A stretch of DNA of 64,000 nt, taken from assembly GCA_045541255.1 (NCBI GenBank), contig JAZQIU010000027.1:924-64923 (forward strand), given 5' to 3'. A program made the translations under genes and the position numbers. Below the pieces are notes generated by a model. The model did not search any database. It saw only the letters and a list, made by a program, of their open reading frames with translations, and had not been told where the DNA came from. Below, in pieces: positions 22,109 to 64,000 of this stretch (positions are counted from its first letter, which is position 1; each line of letters opens with the position of its first letter). Origin of the DNA: Bacilli bacterium. Lineage in GTDB: Bacteria; Bacillota_I; Bacilli_A; RF39; UBA660.

Positions 22109-22924
22109 TTATTTATTATTGTAATCATCTAAAAAGTTATAAGTTTTTTCGTCACTATGATAACCTAATATAGCATCTAAATTAATATTGGACATTGATT
22201 TAAATATATTATAATCTATATCTTTATTATTTTTTCTTAGTGTTTTTATTAATTCTTTGATTTCATTTCTTTTTCCTAATTCAGTTGCTTTATTTGTAAA
22301 TGAACAAGCACAATTTATAAAATTTAATTCATTGTACTTTGTCCAAGATAAGATATCCATTTCTTTTATTAGATACATTGGTCTAATAAGTTCTAAACCT
22401 TCAAAGTTATCACTATGTAATTTAGGCATCATTGTTTTTATTTCACTTGCATAAAACATATTTAATAATGTTGTTTCTATTACATCATCAAAGTGATGAC
22501 CTAATGCAATTTTATTACACCCTAATTCTTTGGCTTTACTATATAAATATCCTCTTCTCATTCTTGCACACATATAACAAGGATGTTCAGGATTTAGTTT
22601 ATTTGCAACTTCAAATATATCAGTAACAAACAATTCAATTGGTATGTTTAAAAGTTTAGCGTTATTAACAATTTTATCTATATTTTCTTTTGAATAACCT
22701 GGATTCATAACTACAAACTTACATTCAAACTTTAATTTTCCATGTCTTAATATTTCTTGCATAAGTTTTGCAAGTAAAAATGAATCTTTACCGCCACTAA
22801 TACATACCATAATATTATCATTTTCTTGTATCAGTTCATATTCGTTTACTGCTTTAACAAATTTAGCCCATATTTCTTTTCTAAATTTTTTTATAATACT
22901 TCTTTCTACATCTTTATAATTCAT
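22109..22924 (-). CDS. ttcA: TtcA-family PP-loop tRNA thiolation ATPase
   Basis: SGGKDS PP-loop, PCYMCARMRRG Cys motif, GHHFDD. Confidence 0.75.
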   Translation of the reverse strand: MNYKDVERSIIKKFRKEIWAKFVKAVNEYELIQENDNIMVCISGGKDSFLLAKLMQEILRHGKLKFECKFVVMNPGYSKENIDKIVNNAKLLNIPIELFVTDIFEVANKLNPEHPCYMCARMRRGYLYSKAKELGCNKIALGHHFDDVIETTLLNMFYASEIKTMMPKLHSDNFEGLELIRPMYLIKEMDILSWTKYNELNFINCACSFTNKATELGKRNEIKELIKTLRKNNKDIDYNIFKSMSNINLDAILGYHSDEKTYNFLDDYNNK

Positions 22925-33265: not shown

Positions 33266-33608
33266 AAAATCTAATAAGCCATGTTCTGTACCTATTACTA
33301 GGTGGCAAACATTTATCTACAGAATATTCTGTCCTTTACTCCATTAAAATTCTTTCGTAAAGACTCCCCTACCATATTTTGGGTTTCTCGCTCGCGGGGT
33401 TTACCACGTTCCACTACATTCGTTTCCAAATGTACTCGTCTCTTTGGCACTTTTATATCTAATCTAACCATTTAAGGTTATTTCGAAGCCGTTAGTATAA
33501 ACTACCTAGAGTTATTTGTTCCTCTAGCACGAACACTACTACCATTTCAGGATAGTGCGAGCATGGACTTTCCTCTACATATAAATATATGCAGCGTTTG
33601 CCTAGATT
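33266..33608 (-). ncRNA. rnpB: RNase P RNA, type B
   Basis: The minus strand carries GAGGAAAGUCCAUGCUCGCAC (33556-33575), GUGGAACGUGGUAAACCCCGCGAGCGAGAAACCCAAA and ACAGAACAUGGCUUA, collinear with B. subtilis rnpB. The ends pair (AAAUCUAG/UUAGAUUU). End coordinates are +/-5 nt. Confidence 0.92.
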
Positions 33609-33935
33609 TTAATTATCTTTTCCATAAACTATTTTTTCAAGATTACTTAATCTTCTAAGAAGGTCAACATTATTAGATGTTCCATTTGAAGTAGTTCCAG
33701 CAGATTCTATATTATCTCTAAGTTTTCTATATTCACTTTTAAGTTTATTATAATCTTCTGTTAAACTTCTGTTTTCTTTTTCTAATTTTTTTATGATATT
33801 CATAAACTCAGTATAATCTCTCATTATCATATCTAAAAATTTATCTACTTCTTGAGGTCTATATCCTCTTGCATCAATTTTAAATTCTTTATCTAAAATA
33901 TCTTGTGTAGTTAAATAAAACTTTTCATTATACAT
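33609..33935 (-). CDS. gpsB: Cell-cycle protein GpsB (DivIVA-domain)
   Basis: ILDKEFKIDARGYRPQEVDKFLD followed by a coiled coil. About 108 aa. Adjacent to rnpB as in B. subtilis. Confidence 0.8.
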   Translation of the reverse strand: MYNEKFYLTTQDILDKEFKIDARGYRPQEVDKFLDMIMRDYTEFMNIIKKLEKENRSLTEDYNKLKSEYRKLRDNIESAGTTSNGTSNNVDLLRRLSNLEKIVYGKDN

Positions 33936-47820: not shown

Positions 47821-48116
47821 TATCCCACCACCTTTGGTACTTCTATTTCTCTTTCTGTATGTTCATCACTATTAGATAATATATCTTCTATATCTTCAGA
47901 AATAGAAGCTTCATCTTCTCTTAAAACGAATTCAAAATCATCTAATGTATGAGTCATAGGTTTAACTGTTTCAATATTTGGAATTTCATTTATTAAATCA
48001 ATTTCTCTATCTATTTCTTCAAATTCATCTAATACATTTTTATTTTCTTCGTCTGTTAATCCAATAAGCAATTTATTTGCGTAATCATCTACCATTTCTT
48101 TTGTAAATTTACTCAT
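47820..48116 (-). CDS. gatC: Asp/Glu-tRNA amidotransferase subunit C
   Basis: 98-aa acidic protein in the canonical position between aspS and gatA. Confidence 0.85.
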   Translation of the reverse strand: MSKFTKEMVDDYANKLLIGLTDEENKNVLDEFEEIDREIDLINEIPNIETVKPMTHTLDDFEFVLREDEASISEDIEDILSNSDEHTEREIEVPKVVG

Positions 48117-49872
48117 TGTCTTCCTCCTTTTTAATAATTAATCCTAATTCTTCTAATTGTTTATCTGTTAGTTCACTTGGTGAACCCATCATTAAATCTT
48201 GTCCACTTGCACTTGTTGGGAAAGCTTGAACTTCTCTTAAGTTTGGTTCATCTTGAATTAGCATAATTAATCTATCAATTCCAGGAGCCATACCACCATG
48301 TGGAGGACATCCGTATTTAAATGCAGTAAATATTGATTTGAATTTTTCTTCTACTTCATCACGTGTATATCCAACTATTTCAAATCCTTTTGCTAAACTA
48401 TCTAAATCATGGTTTCTAACAGCACCTGATGCCATTTCGTTTCCATTACATACAAAGTCAAATTGATATGCTAAAATTTCATCTGGAGTTTTTTCTTCAT
48501 AGTCTTTAATTCCCCCATGTGGTAAACTGAATGGATTATGACAGAATTCATATTTTTTAGTAGCATCATCATATTCAAACATAGGGAAATCGTTAATAAT
48601 ACATAATTCTAATTTGTTATTATCTATTAGTTCACATTTTTTACCTAGTTCTGTACGTATTTGTCCTGCAAATTTTTGTGCTATCTTTTTATTTCTGTTT
48701 GCTATAAAAAACATTACTGAATTTGTTTTCATATCGAATTCTTTAATTAAGTTAGTTCTTTCTTCTTCACTTAAGAATTTATCTATAGGTCCTTTTAATG
48801 TTCCGTCTTCCATTAATGTTACATATCCTATTCCTGGCATTCCTATACTAGAAGCATAGTCAACTATTTCATTAAACCATGAATTAGAATGTGTTCCAAT
48901 ATCATCTACTACAATAACTTTAATTGTAGATTTTTTAAATGGTCCAAATGTTGTATCTTTTAATACAACAGAAGCATCTTTTATAATTAATGGGTTTCTT
49001 AAATCTGGTTTATCAGTACCGAAGCTCTCCATAGCATCTTTATATGCTATTCTTCTAAACGGTCTAGGTGACACAATTTTATCAGAGAATTTAGTGAATG
49101 TATCATAGAAGATTTCTTCTCCAATATTTAATATTTCTTCTTCTTCAACAAAACTCATTTCTAAATCTAATTGATAAAATTCTAATGTTCTATCAGCACG
49201 AGCGTCTTCATCTCTAAAGCATGGTGCTATTTGGAAATATTTTTCAAATCCACCTACCATTAATAATTCTTTATATATTTGTGGTGCTTGTGGTAATGCA
49301 TAAAATTTACCTTTAAATAATCTTGAAGGAACTACAAAGTCTCTTGCTCCTTCTGGACTAGATGCTGTTAATATTGGAGTTTGAACTTCTGTAAATCCTA
49401 AATCATACATTTTATTTCTTAAGAAATGTAATATTTCAGAACGTAATAATATATTATCTTTTACTTTTTTATTACGCATATCTAAATAACGATATTTAAG
49501 TCTTACATCTTCTTTAGTATTTTTAGAAGTTATTATTTCAAATGGTAATTCATTTTTTGATTTACCTAATACTTCTAATTCACTTACTAATAATTCTATT
49601 TCTCCTGTATGAATTTTTGTATTATAAGTTTCTTCATTTCTTTTTCTAATTGTTCCAGTTACTTTTATAACGCTTTCTTTAGTTAAATTTTTAAATATAG
49701 AATCATCATTACTTACTACTTGTATTGTATCAGTATTGTCTCTTAAGTCTAAAAATAATACTCCACCGTGATCTCTTATATTTTCTATCCAACCAGAAAC
49801 AATTACACTTTCTCCTACATTATTAACATCTAAATCTTTACATTGATGTGTATGATAAATATTTGTTTTCAT
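48109..49872 (-). CDS. aspS: Aspartate--tRNA ligase (bacterial type; predicted non-discriminating from context)
   Basis: Class II motifs (FLDLRD, FYALPQAPQ, GGMAPGIDRL). 587 aa. Overlaps gatC by 8 nt. Confidence 0.95.
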   Translation of the reverse strand: MKTNIYHTHQCKDLDVNNVGESVIVSGWIENIRDHGGVLFLDLRDNTDTIQVVSNDDSIFKNLTKESVIKVTGTIRKRNEETYNTKIHTGEIELLVSELEVLGKSKNELPFEIITSKNTKEDVRLKYRYLDMRNKKVKDNILLRSEILHFLRNKMYDLGFTEVQTPILTASSPEGARDFVVPSRLFKGKFYALPQAPQIYKELLMVGGFEKYFQIAPCFRDEDARADRTLEFYQLDLEMSFVEEEEILNIGEEIFYDTFTKFSDKIVSPRPFRRIAYKDAMESFGTDKPDLRNPLIIKDASVVLKDTTFGPFKKSTIKVIVVDDIGTHSNSWFNEIVDYASSIGMPGIGYVTLMEDGTLKGPIDKFLSEEERTNLIKEFDMKTNSVMFFIANRNKKIAQKFAGQIRTELGKKCELIDNNKLELCIINDFPMFEYDDATKKYEFCHNPFSLPHGGIKDYEEKTPDEILAYQFDFVCNGNEMASGAVRNHDLDSLAKGFEIVGYTRDEVEEKFKSIFTAFKYGCPPHGGMAPGIDRLIMLIQDEPNLREVQAFPTSASGQDLMMGSPSELTDKQLEELGLIIKKEEDNE

Positions 49873-50173
49873 TTTAAATTTCCTTTCTTATATAAAAATA
49901 CCCGTATCATCCTATACATAAGGACGAATACGGGTATCCGTGGTGCCACCTTAATTTATTACTAAAGTTTTTTAAACTTATTATTTTTAGTAACCTTTTA
50001 TGCTCCTTTAAGCAATAGCAGTATGATAACGGTTTGCTTCCGAACTAATCTACTAAGAATAATCTTTTCGGTAGTTTGCTCCAAGGTGTTCTTTCACTAA
50101 ATGTCTATAATCAGTTTCCACTATACCTGACTCACTTGTATAAACTTATAAAGTTACTTTTCCTCTTCAACGC
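49873..50173 (-). promoter_or_regulatory. T-box leader of the aspS-gatCAB operon, specifier AAC (Asn) by my reading
   Basis: Stem I base GUUGAAGAGGAAAAGUA, AG bulge AGUGA, distal loop GUGGAAAC. Specifier segment GAAAG-AAC-A-CCUUGGAGCA (AAC at 50088-50090). T-box AAAUUAAGGUGGCACCACGG (49938-49957). Canonical terminator 49898-49937 plus a U-run. Confidence 0.85.
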
Positions 50174-50179
50174 GTTATT

Positions 50180-56988: not shown

Positions 56989-58923
56989 CTATTTTTCTTT
57001 AGTTTCTTTTACATCTTCTTTTTTAGTTCTTTTTGTAACTTTCTTTTTTTCTTCTTTTGCTTCTGATTTTTCTTCAGTAGTTTTTGAAGTTAGTTTTCCA
57101 GTTGTAACTAATTCATCTATTTCTTCTTTAGTTATAGTTTCTTTTTCAATTAATGTGTCACTTAATAATTTAACTAATTTTTCGTTATCTTTTAAAATTT
57201 TAGTTGCTTTTTCATAACACTCATTAATAATTTTTCTAACTTCTTGGTCTATTTCTAATGCAACTTTATCAGAGAAGTTTCTTGATTTATTATAATCTCT
57301 ACCTAAGAATACTCCTTCTTCTTTATGTTCTAATTGAACTGGACCTAAATCACTCATACCATATTCAGTAACCATACTTCTTGCAATTTTTGTTGCTCTT
57401 GAGAAGTCATCACTTGCACCAGTAGATATTTCACCAAAGAATAATTCTTCACTTACACGACCACCTAAAAGTCCTGTAATACTTGCTAATAATTCATTTT
57501 TTGTAGCTATAGAAATTTTTTCTTCTTTAGGTAACATCATTGTATATCCACCAGCCATACCTCTTGGTATGATTGTTATTTTATGAACTTCGTTTGCATC
57601 TTCTAATTTCAAACCAATAACAGCATGTCCCGCTTCATGTAATGAAACAAGTTTCTTTTCTTTATCTGTAATTTTTCTACTTGTTTTAGCAGGTCCCATT
57701 AATACTCTATCAGTAGCTTCATCTATTTCATCCATAGTAATAGCATTTTTATTTCTTCTAACTGCTAATAATGCAGATTCATTAAGAAGATTTTCTAAAT
57801 CTGCTCCACTAAATCCTGGAGTACGTTTAGATATATTTTCTAAATTAACATCTTCAGCAAAAGTTTTATCTTTAGCATGAACTTTTAATATTGCTTCTCT
57901 TTCTTTTTGATCAGGTAAACTTACTGTTACTTGTCTATCAAATCTTCCTGGTCTTAATAATGCTGGGTCTAATACGTCTGGTCTGTTTGTTGCTGCTATA
58001 ATAATGATTCCTTCATTTGCACCGAAACCATCCATTTCAGTTAGTAATTGGTTTAGAGTTTGTTCTCTTTCATCATGTCCACCACCTAAACCTGTTCCTC
58101 TTTGACGTCCAACAGCATCTATTTCATCAATAAATATTAAGCATGGTGCAGATTGTTTTGCTTGTTTAAACATATCTCTAACACGGCTTGCACCAATACC
58201 AACGAACAATTCTACGAAATCTGAACCACTTATGTAATAGAATGGAACGTTTGCTTCACCCGCAACTGCTTTTGCAAGTAATGTTTTACCTGTTCCTGGA
58301 GGACCAACTAATAATACTCCTTTTGGGATTCTTGCTCCTAATTTTTGGAATTTTTTAGGATTCTTTAAGAAATCAATAAGTTCTGCAACTTCTTCTTTTT
58401 CTTCATTTAATCCTGCAACATCAGTAAATCTAACTCTTCCACCATCTTCACTAAGTTTTGCTCTACTCTTACCAAAATCCATTGAATTTTTATTTCCACC
58501 AGATATTTTAGAGAATAAGTAGAATGTCGCTGCAATTAACAATATAAATGGAACAACATTAACTAATATTGTTACAATACTTGAATTTTCTGGATTAGTA
58601 TTTGTTTTTACTTCAAATTCATTATTATCTGCATATGATAAAATTTTATCAATAACAGATTCTGATAAAGGTACGTTAACTCTAAATTCTTCGTTTTTAG
58701 AATAATCTTCTAATTTACCGGTAATATAATATACTCCTGCGTTTGATTTTGGAGTTACTTCAATTTTTTCTACAGTATCTTTACTTAATTCAGTAATTAG
58801 TTCATCATAAGTAAGTTTATTAACTTTTGTTTGCCCTATATTATAAAATACTAAAGTACCTAATATAACAAGCAATAGTACTAAATAAGGCATTGTTTGT
58901 TTTGTTACATTATTTTTCTTCAT
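56989..58923 (-). CDS. ftsH: ATP-dependent zinc metalloprotease FtsH
   Basis: [19 protein letters not shown]. Confidence 0.97.
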
Positions 58924-60250
58924 TTTTATTCTCCTTTTTTGTGTACTTTATAATTATATCATAAAAAGATTTATTATAACAATCAAATTTACTCTTCTTT
59001 ATACCTGGTATCCATAGTACATTATTTTTACTATCAGTTACTATTGGCCAACTATCTCTTAAGTCTTTATTTATCTTTTCATCAATAAATATTTTCTTTA
59101 TTTTTTTACTACCATTTAAGTTTTTTACTTCTATTACATCACTTTCTTCTTTAGTTCTTATGATAATTGGCAATGTAATTTCTTTACTATTCAACTTAAT
59201 TACATAGTTACTTTTTTCTATAGTATCTTCAATATATTCTATTGTTCCAAAGTTTTCTATATTTACTTTATCTTTTAAAATATAATTATATTTATTTAAC
59301 TCTATTTTATTATCTTTTTTAAATACTAAATATGAGTACTCCTTTGACACTATAATATCAAGTGGTAATTGAATTTTTTTGTTGTTTTTGTCGTTTATTA
59401 TTTTAAAAATACTTTCAATATGTTTTTTATTAATTAATGTAATATTTTCTTTATATATTTGAAATAATATTTCTTCTATTTCTTTTTTTTGTATAAAATT
59501 ATGTAGTTTATTAAACTTAATTAAATCTAATTTGTTATCTTTAAAATTATCATTTATATTTTTTTCTACTTCTTGATTTATATAATCTTGTGTACTTTCT
59601 AATTCTTCATTAAGTGTTAAAAACTTTTTATGAATATTTTTATCTTCTTGTTTTAAAAGAGGTAATATATCTAAACGTATTCTATTTCTAGTATATTTTT
59701 TTGATTTATTTGATTCATCATATACACATGGTATATTATTATTTTTAATATAATTTTCTATATCTTTTTTTGTGTAATATACTAGTGGTCTAATTATTTT
59801 AAAATCTTTATATGTTGATAATTTTGAGAAACCTTTATAACCATTTAAGTTACTTCCTCTTATTATTCTCATTAATATAGTTTCTATTAAGTCATCACCG
59901 TGATGTGCTGTTAATAGTATATCAGTATTATATTTTTTTAATATAGTTTCAAAGAAGCTATATCTTTTTTCTCTAGCTTCAAACTCAGTAAATTTATTGT
60001 TTTTATAACCTTTAATTTTCATTCCTTCGAAGATAATATTATTTTCTTTACAATAGTTTTCAACAAAGATATACTCTTCATCGCTAACAGCCCTTAAATT
60101 ATGATTTACATGTGCACATATTACATTATAATTATTAGTTTTTAATAAATGCAAAAGAGCCATAGAATCTGGTCCACCAGAGGTTGCTACGACTAAAAAT
60201 TTATTATTATCAATGTTTAATTGTTTTAAAAAATCTAGACTTTCTTTCAC
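58910..60250 (-). CDS. tilS: tRNA(Ile)-lysidine synthase
   Basis: PP-loop SGGPDSMALLHLL. Immediately upstream of ftsH, as is typical. Confidence 0.9.
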   Translation of the reverse strand: MKESLDFLKQLNIDNNKFLVVATSGGPDSMALLHLLKTNNYNVICAHVNHNLRAVSDEEYIFVENYCKENNIIFEGMKIKGYKNNKFTEFEAREKRYSFFETILKKYNTDILLTAHHGDDLIETILMRIIRGSNLNGYKGFSKLSTYKDFKIIRPLVYYTKKDIENYIKNNNIPCVYDESNKSKKYTRNRIRLDILPLLKQEDKNIHKKFLTLNEELESTQDYINQEVEKNINDNFKDNKLDLIKFNKLHNFIQKKEIEEILFQIYKENITLINKKHIESIFKIINDKNNKKIQLPLDIIVSKEYSYLVFKKDNKIELNKYNYILKDKVNIENFGTIEYIEDTIEKSNYVIKLNSKEITLPIIIRTKEESDVIEVKNLNGSKKIKKIFIDEKINKDLRDSWPIVTDSKNNVLWIPGIKKSKFDCYNKSFYDIIIKYTKKENKNEEK

Positions 60251-60318
60251 ATTTCATCACATTGAATATTTTATACTATTAATAGTTTTTATGCAAATAA
60301 AAAAGGCTTAAACACCTT

Positions 60319-60924
60319 TTATTTTTGTTTGTTATATAAGTATTTTACATATTTTTTTGAACAGCACATTTTTTTAGCAATTTTCTCTATATCAATTGGT
60401 TTATTTTTGGATTCTAAATATTTTAAATATGTAATTATTCTTTTTTCTAAATATATTGTTTTTTCCTTGCTAATATTAATATACTCATCTTTTAGGTTAT
60501 AAAATTCAAATAATTCTTTGTATATATTTTGGTTTTCTATTGATAAATTTTCTTTAGTTTTCGAAATAAAACTTTTGATTATTTCTAAAGCATTGTTAAA
60601 ATCTATTTTATAAATTTCCATTATAAAATGAATAATTGAACCAGCTGTTCCACAAGCATGACATATAAATTGCCCTTTATTGTCTAATATTACAAAGGGA
60701 TAATCGTTCCCTGGGGTATGATAATAACATTTATTTATATAAAATTTATTGTTTGGTTTACATTCTACTTTATATTTTATTCCTTGAGTTTCTAAATAAG
60801 ATAAGTACATTCCCAGCATACTTATATTGGATGCGATATAGTTTAATAAATCATAATCTAGTTCTTCTGTATAATCTAATATTTCATAAGTAAGATATTT
60901 AAATTCATTATCAAAACATATCAT
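60319..60924 (-). CDS. Stand-alone CHC2 (primase-type) zinc-finger protein with basic C-terminal tail
   Basis: CYYH-x17-CHAC followed by GTAGSIIHFIMEIYKIDFNNALEII matches the zf-CHC2 pattern. No TOPRIM domain. Starts 2 nt after the radical SAM stop. Confidence 0.65.
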   Translation of the reverse strand: MICFDNEFKYLTYEILDYTEELDYDLLNYIASNISMLGMYLSYLETQGIKYKVECKPNNKFYINKCYYHTPGNDYPFVILDNKGQFICHACGTAGSIIHFIMEIYKIDFNNALEIIKSFISKTKENLSIENQNIYKELFEFYNLKDEYINISKEKTIYLEKRIITYLKYLESKNKPIDIEKIAKKMCCSKKYVKYLYNKQK

Positions 60925-60926
60925 TT

Positions 60927-61982
60927 TTATCTACCTACCTTTTTATATATTTTACTACATAGTGGTTCAACTCTTTTACCACCAGGTGTTTTAACTTCTT
61001 CTAAATTTTCATATATATTATAATGTTTTATTCCATATTTTTTCATGGTTTCTACATCTAATTCTTTAAATGCAGGACAAGGTAATATAGTACCATCAAA
61101 CTTTATATCTAATTTTTCTAATCCTGCATTACACTTGTGAGTATTATCTCCCATTAAAGGAATACCTATTCTAATTTTACCATTATATATTTGTTTAGAT
61201 TTTTCTAGTATATCCATGAATTCTAATAATTCTTTTTCATCTAACATTAAATCACTTTTATTTTTTAATCCTCTACCTTGTGGTACAAAGTTTAATATAC
61301 TTATATTGTTTATACTAGCTATTTCTAATAGTTCTAATATATCTTTTATTTCTTTATAATTTGGTTTCATTGGAATGAAATGAACATCAGTTTCTAATCC
61401 TACTGTTGAAGCATTCATTAATGAGGTTAATAAGCATGCATGCTTTTGTCTATCTCTTCCCATTAAATATTCATCAGTTTCATGTTCATATGCTTGATAA
61501 TCAAAAACAATTTTGTCTAAACCTATTTCTTTTAATAAACTTAATTCTTGTTTTGTTATAGGATTAAATGCAGGTGGTGAAATTAAATTTTCATAAAAGT
61601 TTTTTATATTATTTTTAAGTCTATCATTCCATGGTTCATTTTGATTTATATCTTTTAACTTTTTATGCATTTCTTCTAAATAAAGTTTTTTAGTTTCAGT
61701 ACTTAAAGGTACAGATTTTTTTATACCACTTGAAAATATTACAGTTCTTATTCCAAATGTTTTTGCATATTTAACCATTTGATATAATTCAGGATGTAAA
61801 AAAGGTTCTCCACCACTTAAAGACAACTCTTCTATTCCACCTTCACTTATAAAATAATCTATTACTCTTTTATAATCATCAAATGAAATAATTTGTTTCT
61901 TATTAATACATGAATTAGATGAACAAAACTTACATTCATTTGGACATGATTCAATTATTTCAAAACACAAATCTTTTACCAT
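60927..61982 (-). CDS. Radical SAM enzyme with C-terminal twitch/SPASM-like Cys motif
   Basis: CPNECKFC (CX3CX2C), SGGEPFL, C-terminal HKCNAG...ILPCP. AGGTGG RBS. TGTTATAAT promoter-like element upstream. Confidence 0.8.
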   Translation of the reverse strand: MVKDLCFEIIESCPNECKFCSSNSCINKKQIISFDDYKRVIDYFISEGGIEELSLSGGEPFLHPELYQMVKYAKTFGIRTVIFSSGIKKSVPLSTETKKLYLEEMHKKLKDINQNEPWNDRLKNNIKNFYENLISPPAFNPITKQELSLLKEIGLDKIVFDYQAYEHETDEYLMGRDRQKHACLLTSLMNASTVGLETDVHFIPMKPNYKEIKDILELLEIASINNISILNFVPQGRGLKNKSDLMLDEKELLEFMDILEKSKQIYNGKIRIGIPLMGDNTHKCNAGLEKLDIKFDGTILPCPAFKELDVETMKKYGIKHYNIYENLEEVKTPGGKRVEPLCSKIYKKVGR

Positions 61983-62067
61983 AAAACCACCTAATTTATA
62001 AAATATATTATAACATTATTATTTAATAAAAAGAAAAAATCTTGATTAAACAAGACTTTTAACTATA

Positions 62068-62943
62068 TTAAAATAAATCTTCTATTTTACATATGATTTT
62101 ATAATCTTCATTTTCCACTAATTTAGAAGAACAATATGGATCAGACCATTCTCTAATATATGGATATAATAATCTTAAAAATAATCTTGTATTATATGAA
62201 ACCATTTTTAAACTTTTTATATCAACATTTTTTACTTCACAGTTATTTGCTAAGTAATATACTAAATAATAATTTCCATCTTTTTCTAATTTTATATCAT
62301 ATGGGAATATTCTGCAATCTATTGGTCTTATATCATAAATACTACATTTGCAATTTTTGTAAAAGTGACATGCTGAACTATTATCTTGTCTTTTCATTTG
62401 ATATAGATTTTTTAAAGTTTTATCATTATGTATTGAAGCAAAGTCTATATTTTCAGCAAATTCTTCAATTTCTTTGTTAGTTACTTTTGAAATTTCTTTT
62501 GCTTCGTTTGGAAGCAACATAGGAGAATCTACTGACGGATTAGAACAACATGTTGCTTTAGCGTTAACACATTTATGACATAAATTAAATGTTCCTAAAT
62601 TATTCTTGGTATTTCTAAATAGAGCATATGGACTTTGTATTATATCATCATTATTTTTGTCTGTTGAGATATATGTTGTAACACCATATAAGAAATTATC
62701 ATTTATAATTTTTAAACTAATTGTTCCACTTTCTATATCGCAATCGTTGATATATTCATAAGTACCATTTATAAGATTTTTGTTAATTGTTCCATTAAAT
62801 TTATATTCACATATTTCTCCTTCAAAATTCAATTTAATAGTAGCAGAAATTTTCTTGTCTTTTTGTTTAAATAAAACTTCTTCATTATATATTTTGTTAT
62901 TTTGAATAAATGATGATATCCATTTACCAGTTAAATTTATCAT
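62068..62943 (-). CDS. YkgJ/FliB-type cysteine-cluster (putative Fe-S/Zn) domain fused to a beta-rich N-terminal domain
   Basis: CHKCVNAKATCC ... ACHFYKNCKCSIYDIRPIDCRIFPY matches the CxxCxxCC/UPF0153 pattern. Confidence 0.65.
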   Translation of the reverse strand: MINLTGKWISSFIQNNKIYNEEVLFKQKDKKISATIKLNFEGEICEYKFNGTINKNLINGTYEYINDCDIESGTISLKIINDNFLYGVTTYISTDKNNDDIIQSPYALFRNTKNNLGTFNLCHKCVNAKATCCSNPSVDSPMLLPNEAKEISKVTNKEIEEFAENIDFASIHNDKTLKNLYQMKRQDNSSACHFYKNCKCSIYDIRPIDCRIFPYDIKLEKDGNYYLVYYLANNCEVKNVDIKSLKMVSYNTRLFLRLLYPYIREWSDPYCSSKLVENEDYKIICKIEDLF

Positions 62944-62985
62944 ATGCTAAAACCTCTATTCTCTTAATAAAAATTTGATTATTCT

Positions 62986-63981
62986 TTATAGAATTTTACC
63001 TATATGTTTTTTATATTCTTCTTTAACTATTTCAAATGGTAATGTATGTTGTAACATACTTATAAATAAACGCTGATTATATGACAATTCTGTTGATATA
63101 ATCTTCTCCCAAAAATTATTTTCTTCTTCTGTTGGTTCATTATTATTCATACTTAGACCATTTAATTGTTGTGGAACATTCATTAAATTAGAAGTAATAA
63201 TATTATCTAATTCTTCTAACACTAAAAAAATATTTATTTGTTTTTTTAATGATAAATCTATTATATTTTTCAATAAGTATGTATATTCTATAGACTCTTG
63301 AATTTTACGCTCGCTAAGCCACCTATCAAGTCCATATGGGATAAAACTAAAATCATATTTTTCTAATACTTTTGAGACTCTATTGTTAGAACAATTAATC
63401 CACATGCATTCTCTACCTTCGATATTTTCTATAGTAAACCCTAAATTATAAGCTAGTACTTCAGCATAACCATCTACACTTTCTCCTATATATGGTACTA
63501 CATTAGCCATTGGATTATATTTTTTTATTATTTCAAATTCTTTAACAGGACATAAAATATATCCATTTTCAATATTTTTAACACTTTTGAATTCTACATC
63601 ATTAGCATGAAAAAAACTTATATTTTTAAACTCTTTTTCAGTTGCTGGTATTACTACTGCATACTTTTTATTATTGAAACCGTAAATGTCATATTCATCA
63701 CCTCTTGTTTCACAGTTTATAGAAAAATGGATATAATTATCACTTTGTGGATATGTAAATTCAAAACTTTCTTCAAATAATTTTCCTGTTTCTTTATATG
63801 TAGCTCCTGCTTTGAATTTTGATTTTATCTCATTATTTATAGGTGCATAATTTGTTTTATGAATAAATACAAATTCATTTTCAGTTTCATATATTTTATC
63901 ATTTTTATAATTTTCTTTTATCTTTTTGAATCTTTCTATATCTTCAATTGTTAAAGGTTCTTGTAATAAACTTTTTTCCAT
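62986..63981 (-). CDS. Hypothetical 331-aa protein (first visible gene of the Fe-S cassette)
   Basis: Long ORF with no motif recognised. Only 19 nt of upstream sequence in the window. Confidence 0.45.
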   Translation of the reverse strand: MEKSLLQEPLTIEDIERFKKIKENYKNDKIYETENEFVFIHKTNYAPINNEIKSKFKAGATYKETGKLFEESFEFTYPQSDNYIHFSINCETRGDEYDIYGFNNKKYAVVIPATEKEFKNISFFHANDVEFKSVKNIENGYILCPVKEFEIIKKYNPMANVVPYIGESVDGYAEVLAYNLGFTIENIEGRECMWINCSNNRVSKVLEKYDFSFIPYGLDRWLSERKIQESIEYTYLLKNIIDLSLKKQINIFLVLEELDNIITSNLMNVPQQLNGLSMNNNEPTEEENNFWEKIISTELSYNQRLFISMLQHTLPFEIVKEEYKKHIGKIL

Positions 63982-64000
63982 ATTTATTTCCTATCTTTTC

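Follow-up and report, generated by a model that had tools for sequence, protein, structure and literature searches.

Do four co-directional genes directly upstream of the conserved tilS-ftsH pair act together in one pathway, or do they merely share a place in the genome? This question is raised by a locus in a stretch of 64,000 nucleotides (nt) from a Bacilli bacterium (RF39; UBA660; contig JAZQIU010000027.1), which as a whole is termed the window hereafter. In the order of transcription, the genes encode a protein with no family match (A), a protein with a YkgJ/CxxCxxCC cysteine cluster (B), a radical S-adenosylmethionine (SAM) protein with a twitch-like C-terminus (C) and a protein with a CHC2 zinc ribbon that lacks a TOPRIM domain (D). 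The original prediction regarded all four as one functional iron-sulfur (Fe-S) cassette. Our analysis favours a different reading, to which we assign a probability of roughly 0.68: the interval between rpsI and tilS would be a mosaic hotspot in which accessory genes surround a core radical SAM gene that stands alone and carries its own promoter, and A, B and D as well as two further genes for proteins of 104 and 170 amino acids (aa) would be independent cargo.

Co-occurrence and layout of the genes between rpsI and tilS

Neighbourhoods were compared at 93 loci carrying C, with up to 10 kb of sequence on each side. TBLASTN searches of these loci with A, B and D returned nothing at E<1e-3, that is, none of the 93 C loci contains A, B or D, and the four genes occur together only in the window species. 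Queries with the wider families (16 A-, 120 B- and 44 D-family sequences) retrieved relatives only from contigs of the window species, plus A in one near relative. A metagenome scan for B yielded 5 loci, and B relatives were found in unrelated contexts lacking C, namely in the gene orders rpsI-GNAT-B-His_Phos and LMWPc-YmdB-B. Thus, the absence of A, B and D from the other C loci together with the unrelated contexts of B argues against a single cassette. The original prediction had named two outcomes that would jointly speak against it, that is, failing co-occurrence in other genomes and membership of each protein in a well-characterised housekeeping family. The former was found, whereas the latter was not, as A, B, C and D all fall outside characterised families.

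All four open reading frames (ORFs) lie on the minus strand between positions 60319 and 63981, in a region of ~24% GC. Their coordinates and motifs are as originally predicted, and profile searches agree with the domain assignments. Since A, B, C and D each have full-length homologues elsewhere, they represent real genes rather than chance ORFs. A generic promoter and terminator scan placed the region at background level, found no canonical terminator and did not call the hairpin between B and C; the signals at the locus, including the B-C hairpin, the -10 element and ribosome-binding site (RBS) of C and the tilS promoter, were therefore read directly from the sequence. In window coordinates, the features are:

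62986-63981, minus strand: gene A, ORF of 331 aa with no family or fold match
62961-62984, no strand: indel junction, at which ~690 bp including the 170-aa gene are present in six same-species contigs
62068-62943, minus strand: gene B, 291 aa; N-terminal domain plus YkgJ/CxxCxxCC cysteine cluster
62034-62060, minus strand: hairpin in the B-C spacer (10-bp stem, dG -8.4 kcal/mol) with a trailing T-run
62007-62015, minus strand: extended -10 element TGTTATAAT 5' of C, within the block conserved with the relatives L009, L010 and L100
61992-61987, minus strand: RBS AGGTGG of C
60940-62062, minus strand: constant unit of hairpin, promoter and C without its final ~13 nt; 91-94% identical at the nt level to L100, L009 and L010
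60927-61982, minus strand: gene C, 351 aa; radical SAM protein, twitch-like C-terminus
60305-60939, minus strand: variable slot 3' of C, occupied by D here and by other genes elsewhere
60319-60924, minus strand: gene D, 201 aa; CHC2 zinc ribbon, no TOPRIM
60299-60320, minus strand: weak hairpin and T-run 3' of D, dG -6.8 kcal/mol
60297-60268, minus strand: promoter-like TTTGCA-N18-TAAAAT for tilS
58910-60250, minus strand: tilS, conserved downstream anchor
56989-58923, minus strand: ftsH, conserved downstream anchor

The proposed division into two transcription units, A-B and C-D, is supported by the hairpin, the T-run and the extended -10 element in the B-C spacer, where the terminator-like hairpin may mark the end of the upstream unit. 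The stop codon of C and the start codon of D are separated by 2 nt. The intergenic spacers at the locus measure 42, 85 and 68 nt and consequently leave no room for a precursor-peptide ORF. No transporter is conserved beside C either.

Seven contigs encode proteins identical to D, and the longer among them reveal the complete gene order of the window species, DUF1846-TsaE-rplM-rpsI-104aa-A-170aa-B-C-D-tilS-ftsH, so that the 104-aa gene and rpsI can be added upstream of A, where partners had been suspected beyond the window edge. The 170-aa gene between A and B, which has no family match, is present in six same-species contigs (e.g. within L101 2146-2835 and L102 5559-6071); the window lacks it through a clean deletion of ~690 bp. 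In one of these contigs, L101, a 135-aa ORF (166-573) with PBECR3/PBECR2 (phage-barnase-EndoU-colicin-RelE-like nuclease) domains lies 5' of the 104-aa gene, a position taken by rpsI in L102 and L103.

Presence/absence polymorphism upstream of tilS, which the original prediction had suggested looking for in close relatives, was indeed found. Apart from the 170-aa indel, a near relative whose C gene is 94% identical at the nt level has an unrelated membrane protein gene after rpsI-C and carries no A, B or D. A second near relative, L100 (91% nt identity in C and 89% in tilS), has the order DUF5131 fragment-C-A-tilS, that is, A resides in the slot taken by D in the window. At 70-80% protein identity, the slot is occupied by a HEPN protein (pEK499_p136), a 128-aa protein plus DUF1848, a C39-type peptidase, a 478-aa protein or tandem ~200-aa paralogues. 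The latter (L013 11058-12270) are 54% identical to each other, have no family match and are followed by Abi_2 and HtrA genes. Genes inserted between rpsI and C in relatives include those for a YfbR-like HD protein, DUF4379 and a nucleoside 2-deoxyribosyltransferase-like (NDT-like) protein.

In DNA alignments, similarity breaks off at 62062/62053 and at 60940, ~13 nt before the C stop codon, and that to L100 resumes at 60304, before the tilS promoter. As these breakpoints bracket the promoter and C, the constant unit consists of hairpin, promoter and C, and all else is exchangeable. Indeed, of the four-gene region, near relatives without A, B and D share only the block of promoter and C. The leader of A (63972-63999) resembles both the junction after the C stop codon in relatives (L009 5426-5453) and the 3' end of C in the window (60927-60945), with the common pattern AAAAG-TAGG-A-ATAAA-ATG. 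This suggests that A may formerly have resided directly 3' of C, the place it has in L100, and then moved along with its own RBS.

The radical SAM protein C and its neighbours

Homologues of C at 64-94% identity number more than 1000, and most are unnamed metagenome proteins. A pattern scan with each species represented by one genome located 165 C loci, chiefly in metagenome-assembled genomes from the gut labelled Bacilli, 'Mycoplasma sp. CAG', Mollicutes/Tenericutes or Clostridia. At the same 15 loci, mean pairwise identity was 76% for C and 73% for the adjacent ribosomal proteins L13 and S9; C is under very strong constraint and conserved to the same degree as its ribosomal-protein neighbours. 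Only mean conservation is used here, as the correlation between C divergence and ribosomal-protein divergence (r = 0.07) covers too narrow an identity range.

The genes around C behave differently. Clustering of 1687 ORFs from the 93 loci and the window copy (one fetched locus had no C ORF call) gave 946 clusters. In 91 loci, the genes directly 3' of C make up 67 clusters, and in 88 loci those directly 5' make up 60. A Pfam census covering 148 distinct clusters no more than two genes away from C found 157 families, none of them dominant; GNAT (8) and ASCH, NUDIX and HD (3 each) were the commonest. Given this scatter of neighbour families, C has no conserved partner. No conserved small ORF, transporter or candidate substrate gene was found beside C in the 93 loci, and all-vs-all BLASTP among the variable neighbour proteins revealed no shared hidden domain.

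In Pfam, C matches PF04055 Radical_SAM (56.5 bits, cutoff 29.5) and also Fer4_12. It carries CPNECKFC and SGGEPFL, and the cluster motif C13-x3-C17-x2-C20, which is invariant in the family, identifies it as a radical SAM protein. The invariant cysteines are C6, C13, C17, C20, C25, C284, C302 and C342, five of which fall within the first 25 residues. The motif C284-x12-G297-x4-C302, invariant in 14 sequences, corresponds to the first part of the SPASM/twitch motif (C-x9-15-G-x4-C). The second half of the SPASM 7-Cys motif (CX2CX5CX3C) is absent, with only C342 following, and PF13186 (SPASM) is not matched at E<=1; C is thus twitch-like at most. In the AlphaFold2 (AF2) model, residues 30-272 form a confident barrel (mostly pLDDT 80-97), and the C-terminus is of low confidence. 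Foldseek relates the partial TIM-barrel fold to viperin, BlsE, SkfB and MoaA with probability 1.00; its matches, which also include SuiB and PqqE, have E values from 4e-11 to 2e-8, TM ~0.5 and 12-17% identity, and on the predicted model they give no specific assignment. Neither A nor C was on record in exact-sequence look-ups.

With the twitch/SPASM enzymes MoaA, BtrN, SkfB, PqqE and CteB, C shares the CxxxCxxC motif, the SGGEP SAM motif, the partial TIM barrel and C-x12-G-x4-C. It differs from them in its low identity (12-17%), in NCBIfam scores below the cutoffs, in its five N-terminal cysteines, in a 45-residue helical insert (residues 89-135) and in the lack of a conserved partner or substrate gene. 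One could regard the locus as a cassette for protein or peptide maturation, in which C as a twitch/SPASM maturase modifies the adjacent A, B or D with B as Fe-S helper. The best sequence matches of C, namely PqqE (74 bits), the W-cofactor oxidoreductase maturase (69 bits) and CteB (5wgg; 1e-9), fit this idea, as do SkfB and SuiB among the top fold matches. However, the scores stay far under the family cutoffs (381 for PqqE and 380 for the W-cofactor maturase; likewise 57 bits vs 500 for NirJ/NirJ2 and 51 vs 325 for MoaA), the short spacers hold no precursor ORF, no substrate-candidate gene accompanies C across the 93 loci, and both a SPASM match and the second 7-Cys half are missing, which makes maturation very unlikely. 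C was accordingly rejected as PqqE, W-cofactor maturase, NirJ or MoaA on its scores, and as an anSME-type maturase or a maturase of RiPPs (peptides made by ribosomes that are modified after translation) on family scores and gene context; the same missing precursor, small ORF and transporter genes led us to discard a RiPP cluster.

Prokaryotic viperins (pVip) with their nucleotide kinases share the radical SAM core with C, and viperin is its nearest fold match. However, the NCBIfam viperin model NF038283 reaches 39.3 bits against a cutoff of 180 and covers residues 7-87 only, and the PADLOC pVip model covers only residues 7-88; the candidate was dropped, as both models extend no further than the N-terminal ~80 residues. 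To our knowledge, viperins are not expected to have a twitch-type cysteine motif such as that of C.

Searches for C on mobile elements gave no match in phage records, one full-length relative and one 68-residue partial match in 2.9 M viral contigs, and one match on plasmids, a Parabacteroides protein with 30% identity over 307 residues (E 3e-43). This relative shares the key motifs of C and lacks its insert. Its gene overlaps a gene of the 5-hmdU DNA kinase (HMUDK) family (PF18723, E 3.5e-83) in a defence-like island that encodes a ThsB-like TIR protein and a PDC-M50A protein and adjoins an integrase gene. In Parabacteroides distasonis NZ_OY725812 (L109, 45648-50806), the genes encode PDC-M50A, the ThsB-like TIR protein, a 213-aa protein, the 5-hmdU DNA kinase, the radical SAM protein and a 521-aa protein with an HD-like motif, next to the integrase; this operon is a candidate nucleotide/DNA-modification or defence system. 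The kinase, the TIR protein and the other partners from the island were not found near C in the 93 loci, and no kinase was seen there, unlike in pVip systems. A cluster of the thymidine-hypermodification type (HMUDK plus radical SAM) was rejected for the window, as 5-hmdU DNA kinase/aGPT-Pplase occurs only beside the Parabacteroides relative and not among the neighbours of C. M6 gp53, the radical SAM enzyme known from thymidine hypermodification, is an SPL-like protein of a family other than that of C (PMC8989533). The pairing of a distant relative with a 5-hmdU DNA kinase is a hint at a nucleotide or nucleic-acid substrate for C, as is the presence of viperin, BlsE and MoaA, next to SkfB and SuiB, among the top fold matches, and from family knowledge and these leads a substrate of this class is our best guess.

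It is conceivable that C and its slot gene form a modular system, in which C would be the conserved catalytic core for defence or nucleic-acid modification and the exchanged slot gene a sensor, effector or specificity module. In the closest clade, the slot gene is tightly coupled, with gaps of -17 to +56 nt from C and its RBS within the 3' end of C. Conflict-type cargo (HEPN pEK499_p136, Abi_2, the PBECR nuclease, DUF1848, DUF5131 and the YfbR-like HD protein), the TIR, HMUDK and integrase genes adjoining the distant relative and the viperin-like fold of C would also fit. However, unlike defence genes, C shows ribosomal-protein-level conservation and stable synteny, and the slot genes are mutually without detectable similarity. 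At many C loci the downstream gene is distant or on the opposite strand, relatives of A and B exist without C, insertions are also found 5' of the C promoter, and what the pVip models cover is the generic N-terminal part of C. We therefore consider a modular system unlikely. Its more specific version, in which C would be an invariant catalytic hub acting perhaps on nucleotides or nucleic acids, with its output read or directed by the coupled slot gene (here D as a primase-type ribbon binding single-stranded DNA), appears improbable to us.

Proteins A, B and D

A has no match in Pfam, NCBIfam, PADLOC or PHROGs, and neither have its 16 relatives; the family comprises only 16 clusters, some with a long N-terminal extension. 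Searches of viral, phage and plasmid sequences and a PDB sequence-profile search with A likewise gave no match. The AF2 model (pLDDT 84.7, pTM 0.73) predicts an N-terminal alpha/beta domain and a helical C-terminus, for which Foldseek finds nothing in PDB and BFVD (best E 0.3 and 0.06, TM <=0.15). Conserved residues are H41, K42, T43, Y45, P47, N89, E91, C144, P145, E148 and N156, and the location of the conserved His, Lys, Thr, Asn, Glu and Cys at strand ends of the model suggests that A may be an enzyme.

These features bear on another possibility, namely that 104aa-A-170aa, with or without B, is a self-contained accessory module (toxin/immunity or small defence) that came to lie next to C by chance. 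In six same-species contigs, the 104-A and A-170 gaps are only 2 and 17 nt, strains differ in whether they have the 170-aa gene, the ORF with PBECR nuclease domains lies upstream in L101, A is rare and patchy, and its conserved His, Cys, Glu and Asn would suit an enzyme. However, the 104-aa and 170-aa proteins match PADLOC, PHROG and Pfam no more than A does, and A occurs without both genes in L100 and L099. We rate such a module as rather unlikely to be the explanation; it is moreover compatible with an accessory-gene hotspot rather than exclusive of it.

B matches PF03692 CxxCxxCC over residues 122-216 (E 4e-5, 24.6 bits, cutoff 23), as do 22 of 22 B relatives (best E 4.7e-7), and its invariant cysteines are C122, C125, C132, C133, C192, C200 and C210. 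The N-terminal domain (~residues 1-115) is conserved as well and finds nothing credible by PDB profile or per-member Pfam scans. The family counts ~120 clusters, all of ~291 aa and with both domains conserved. B has no match in phage records and one in viral contigs, which belongs to a distant, membrane-anchored branch of the family: L112 5839-6831 (IMG/VR UViG 2703719137_000005) is 58% identical to P0252 and lies on a 46%-GC contig classed as viral by IMG/VR. A similar motif is known from just one characterised protein, the flagellin lysine methyltransferase FliB, which through its N-terminal cysteine motif binds a [4Fe-4S] cluster that serves methyl transfer (PMC8598068). The motifs are CX4CX3CC in FliB and CX2CX6CC in B, and B differs from YkgJ/FliB by the extra ~115-residue N-terminal domain and the lack of a flagellar context. 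By analogy with FliB, B probably binds a [4Fe-4S] or Zn centre.

D matches PF01807 CHC2 at residues 49-119 (38.7 bits, cutoff 24.9). No TOPRIM match was obtained, and the DnaG model TIGR01391 scores 41 bits against a cutoff of 284 for this protein of 201 aa. An N-terminal helical segment precedes the zinc ribbon, whose ligands C66, H69, C88 and C91 are near-invariant, and a conserved KIAxRLCCSKxxVK follows at the C-terminus. The D family comprises ~25 clusters of ~200-aa proteins, beyond which only the zinc ribbon matches ordinary primases. Its profile matches the zinc-binding domains of DnaG in 2au3 (4e-11) and 1d0q. The likeness to DnaG is thus limited to the CHC2 ribbon, the additional N- and C-terminal segments being conserved in the D family. 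A role as primase was rejected, as TOPRIM/RNA-polymerase and helicase-binding domains are lacking, and a helix-turn-helix in the C-terminus, seen by eye only, found no support in Pfam or PDB. Viral, phage and plasmid searches with D gave one partial match, of the CHC2 finger to a phage DnaG primase. We infer that D probably binds DNA. Two D relatives (P0278 and P0292) are fused to an NDT-like domain, and stand-alone NDT-like genes occur within a few genes of C at four loci (L021 12430-12870, L044 8176-8634, L090 9503-9964 and L013 9555-9854).

A known anti-phage system was also rejected: B, like A, has no match in PADLOC, and C and D hit only generic domains there, that is, the pVip N-terminus and the DRT zinc finger.

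Elsewhere in the window, on the minus strand, a class B RNase P RNA (33270-33609, 286 bits) and a T-box leader (49917-50179, 100 bits) 5' of a 587-aa ORF (48109-49872) were detected, both in keeping with a Bacillota genome. A second, distant TilS-like (PP-loop ATPase) region at 22217-22861 (minus strand) is 24% identical to TilS residues 7-206.

A mosaic interval around a core gene

We propose that the hotspot extends from the end of the rplM-rpsI operon to tilS-ftsH and comprises three or more independent units. Directly observed were gene content, conservation, breakpoints and transcription signals as well as the missing co-occurrence, and for cofactors, chemistry and substrate class we rely on inference. 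The first unit would be the promoter-bearing gene C, a core gene retained by vertical descent in a large clade of uncultured gut Bacillota with low GC. Its N-terminal CxxxCxxC [4Fe-4S] cluster would cleave SAM to generate a 5'-deoxyadenosyl radical, and a second, twitch-type cluster (C284/C302/C342 plus C6 or C25) may bind or activate a conserved cellular substrate. The second unit would be the upstream accessory unit 104aa-A-(170aa), followed by B, itself separately conserved, and the third the variable slot directly 3' of C, here filled by D. The co-transcription and translational coupling of D with C would result only from its landing position.

Known hotspots and defence islands resemble this interval in their conserved flanks (here rpsI, C and tilS), exchanged cargo, strain-level indels and HEPN/Abi_2/PBECR domains. 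They differ in that the window copy has no identified integrase, repeats or complete known defence system, and in that the cargo elsewhere often consists of ordinary small enzymes (GNAT, NUDIX, ASCH).

Several points weigh against a hotspot with independent cargo. The core status of C is judged from the number of carrier genomes. The 2-nt gap between C and D and the frequent tight coupling downstream of C, with the 3' gene on the same strand within <=60 nt in 46 of 91 loci, could have a functional cause besides the compactness of the genomes. A adjoins C in two arrangements, that of the window species and that of L100, which may weakly link the two, and the NDT fusions in the D family together with the NDT-like genes near C in a few loci provide a weak second-order link between D and C. 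Finally, the functions of A to D are predictions from sequences and models.

Taken together, A-B-C-D does not hold as a pathway; the genes add new members to known superfamilies and lie in a variable hotspot. Those worth following up are the orphan radical SAM family C and the fold-orphan A, whose confidently predicted structure has no match among solved or viral structures. The sharply bounded variable slot flanking C can serve as a marker of strain variation and as a site in which to search for new accessory or conflict genes. With its conservation at the level of ribosomal proteins across ~165 uncultured gut species, the unnamed C family is a good target for those seeking new enzymes in unculturable organisms.

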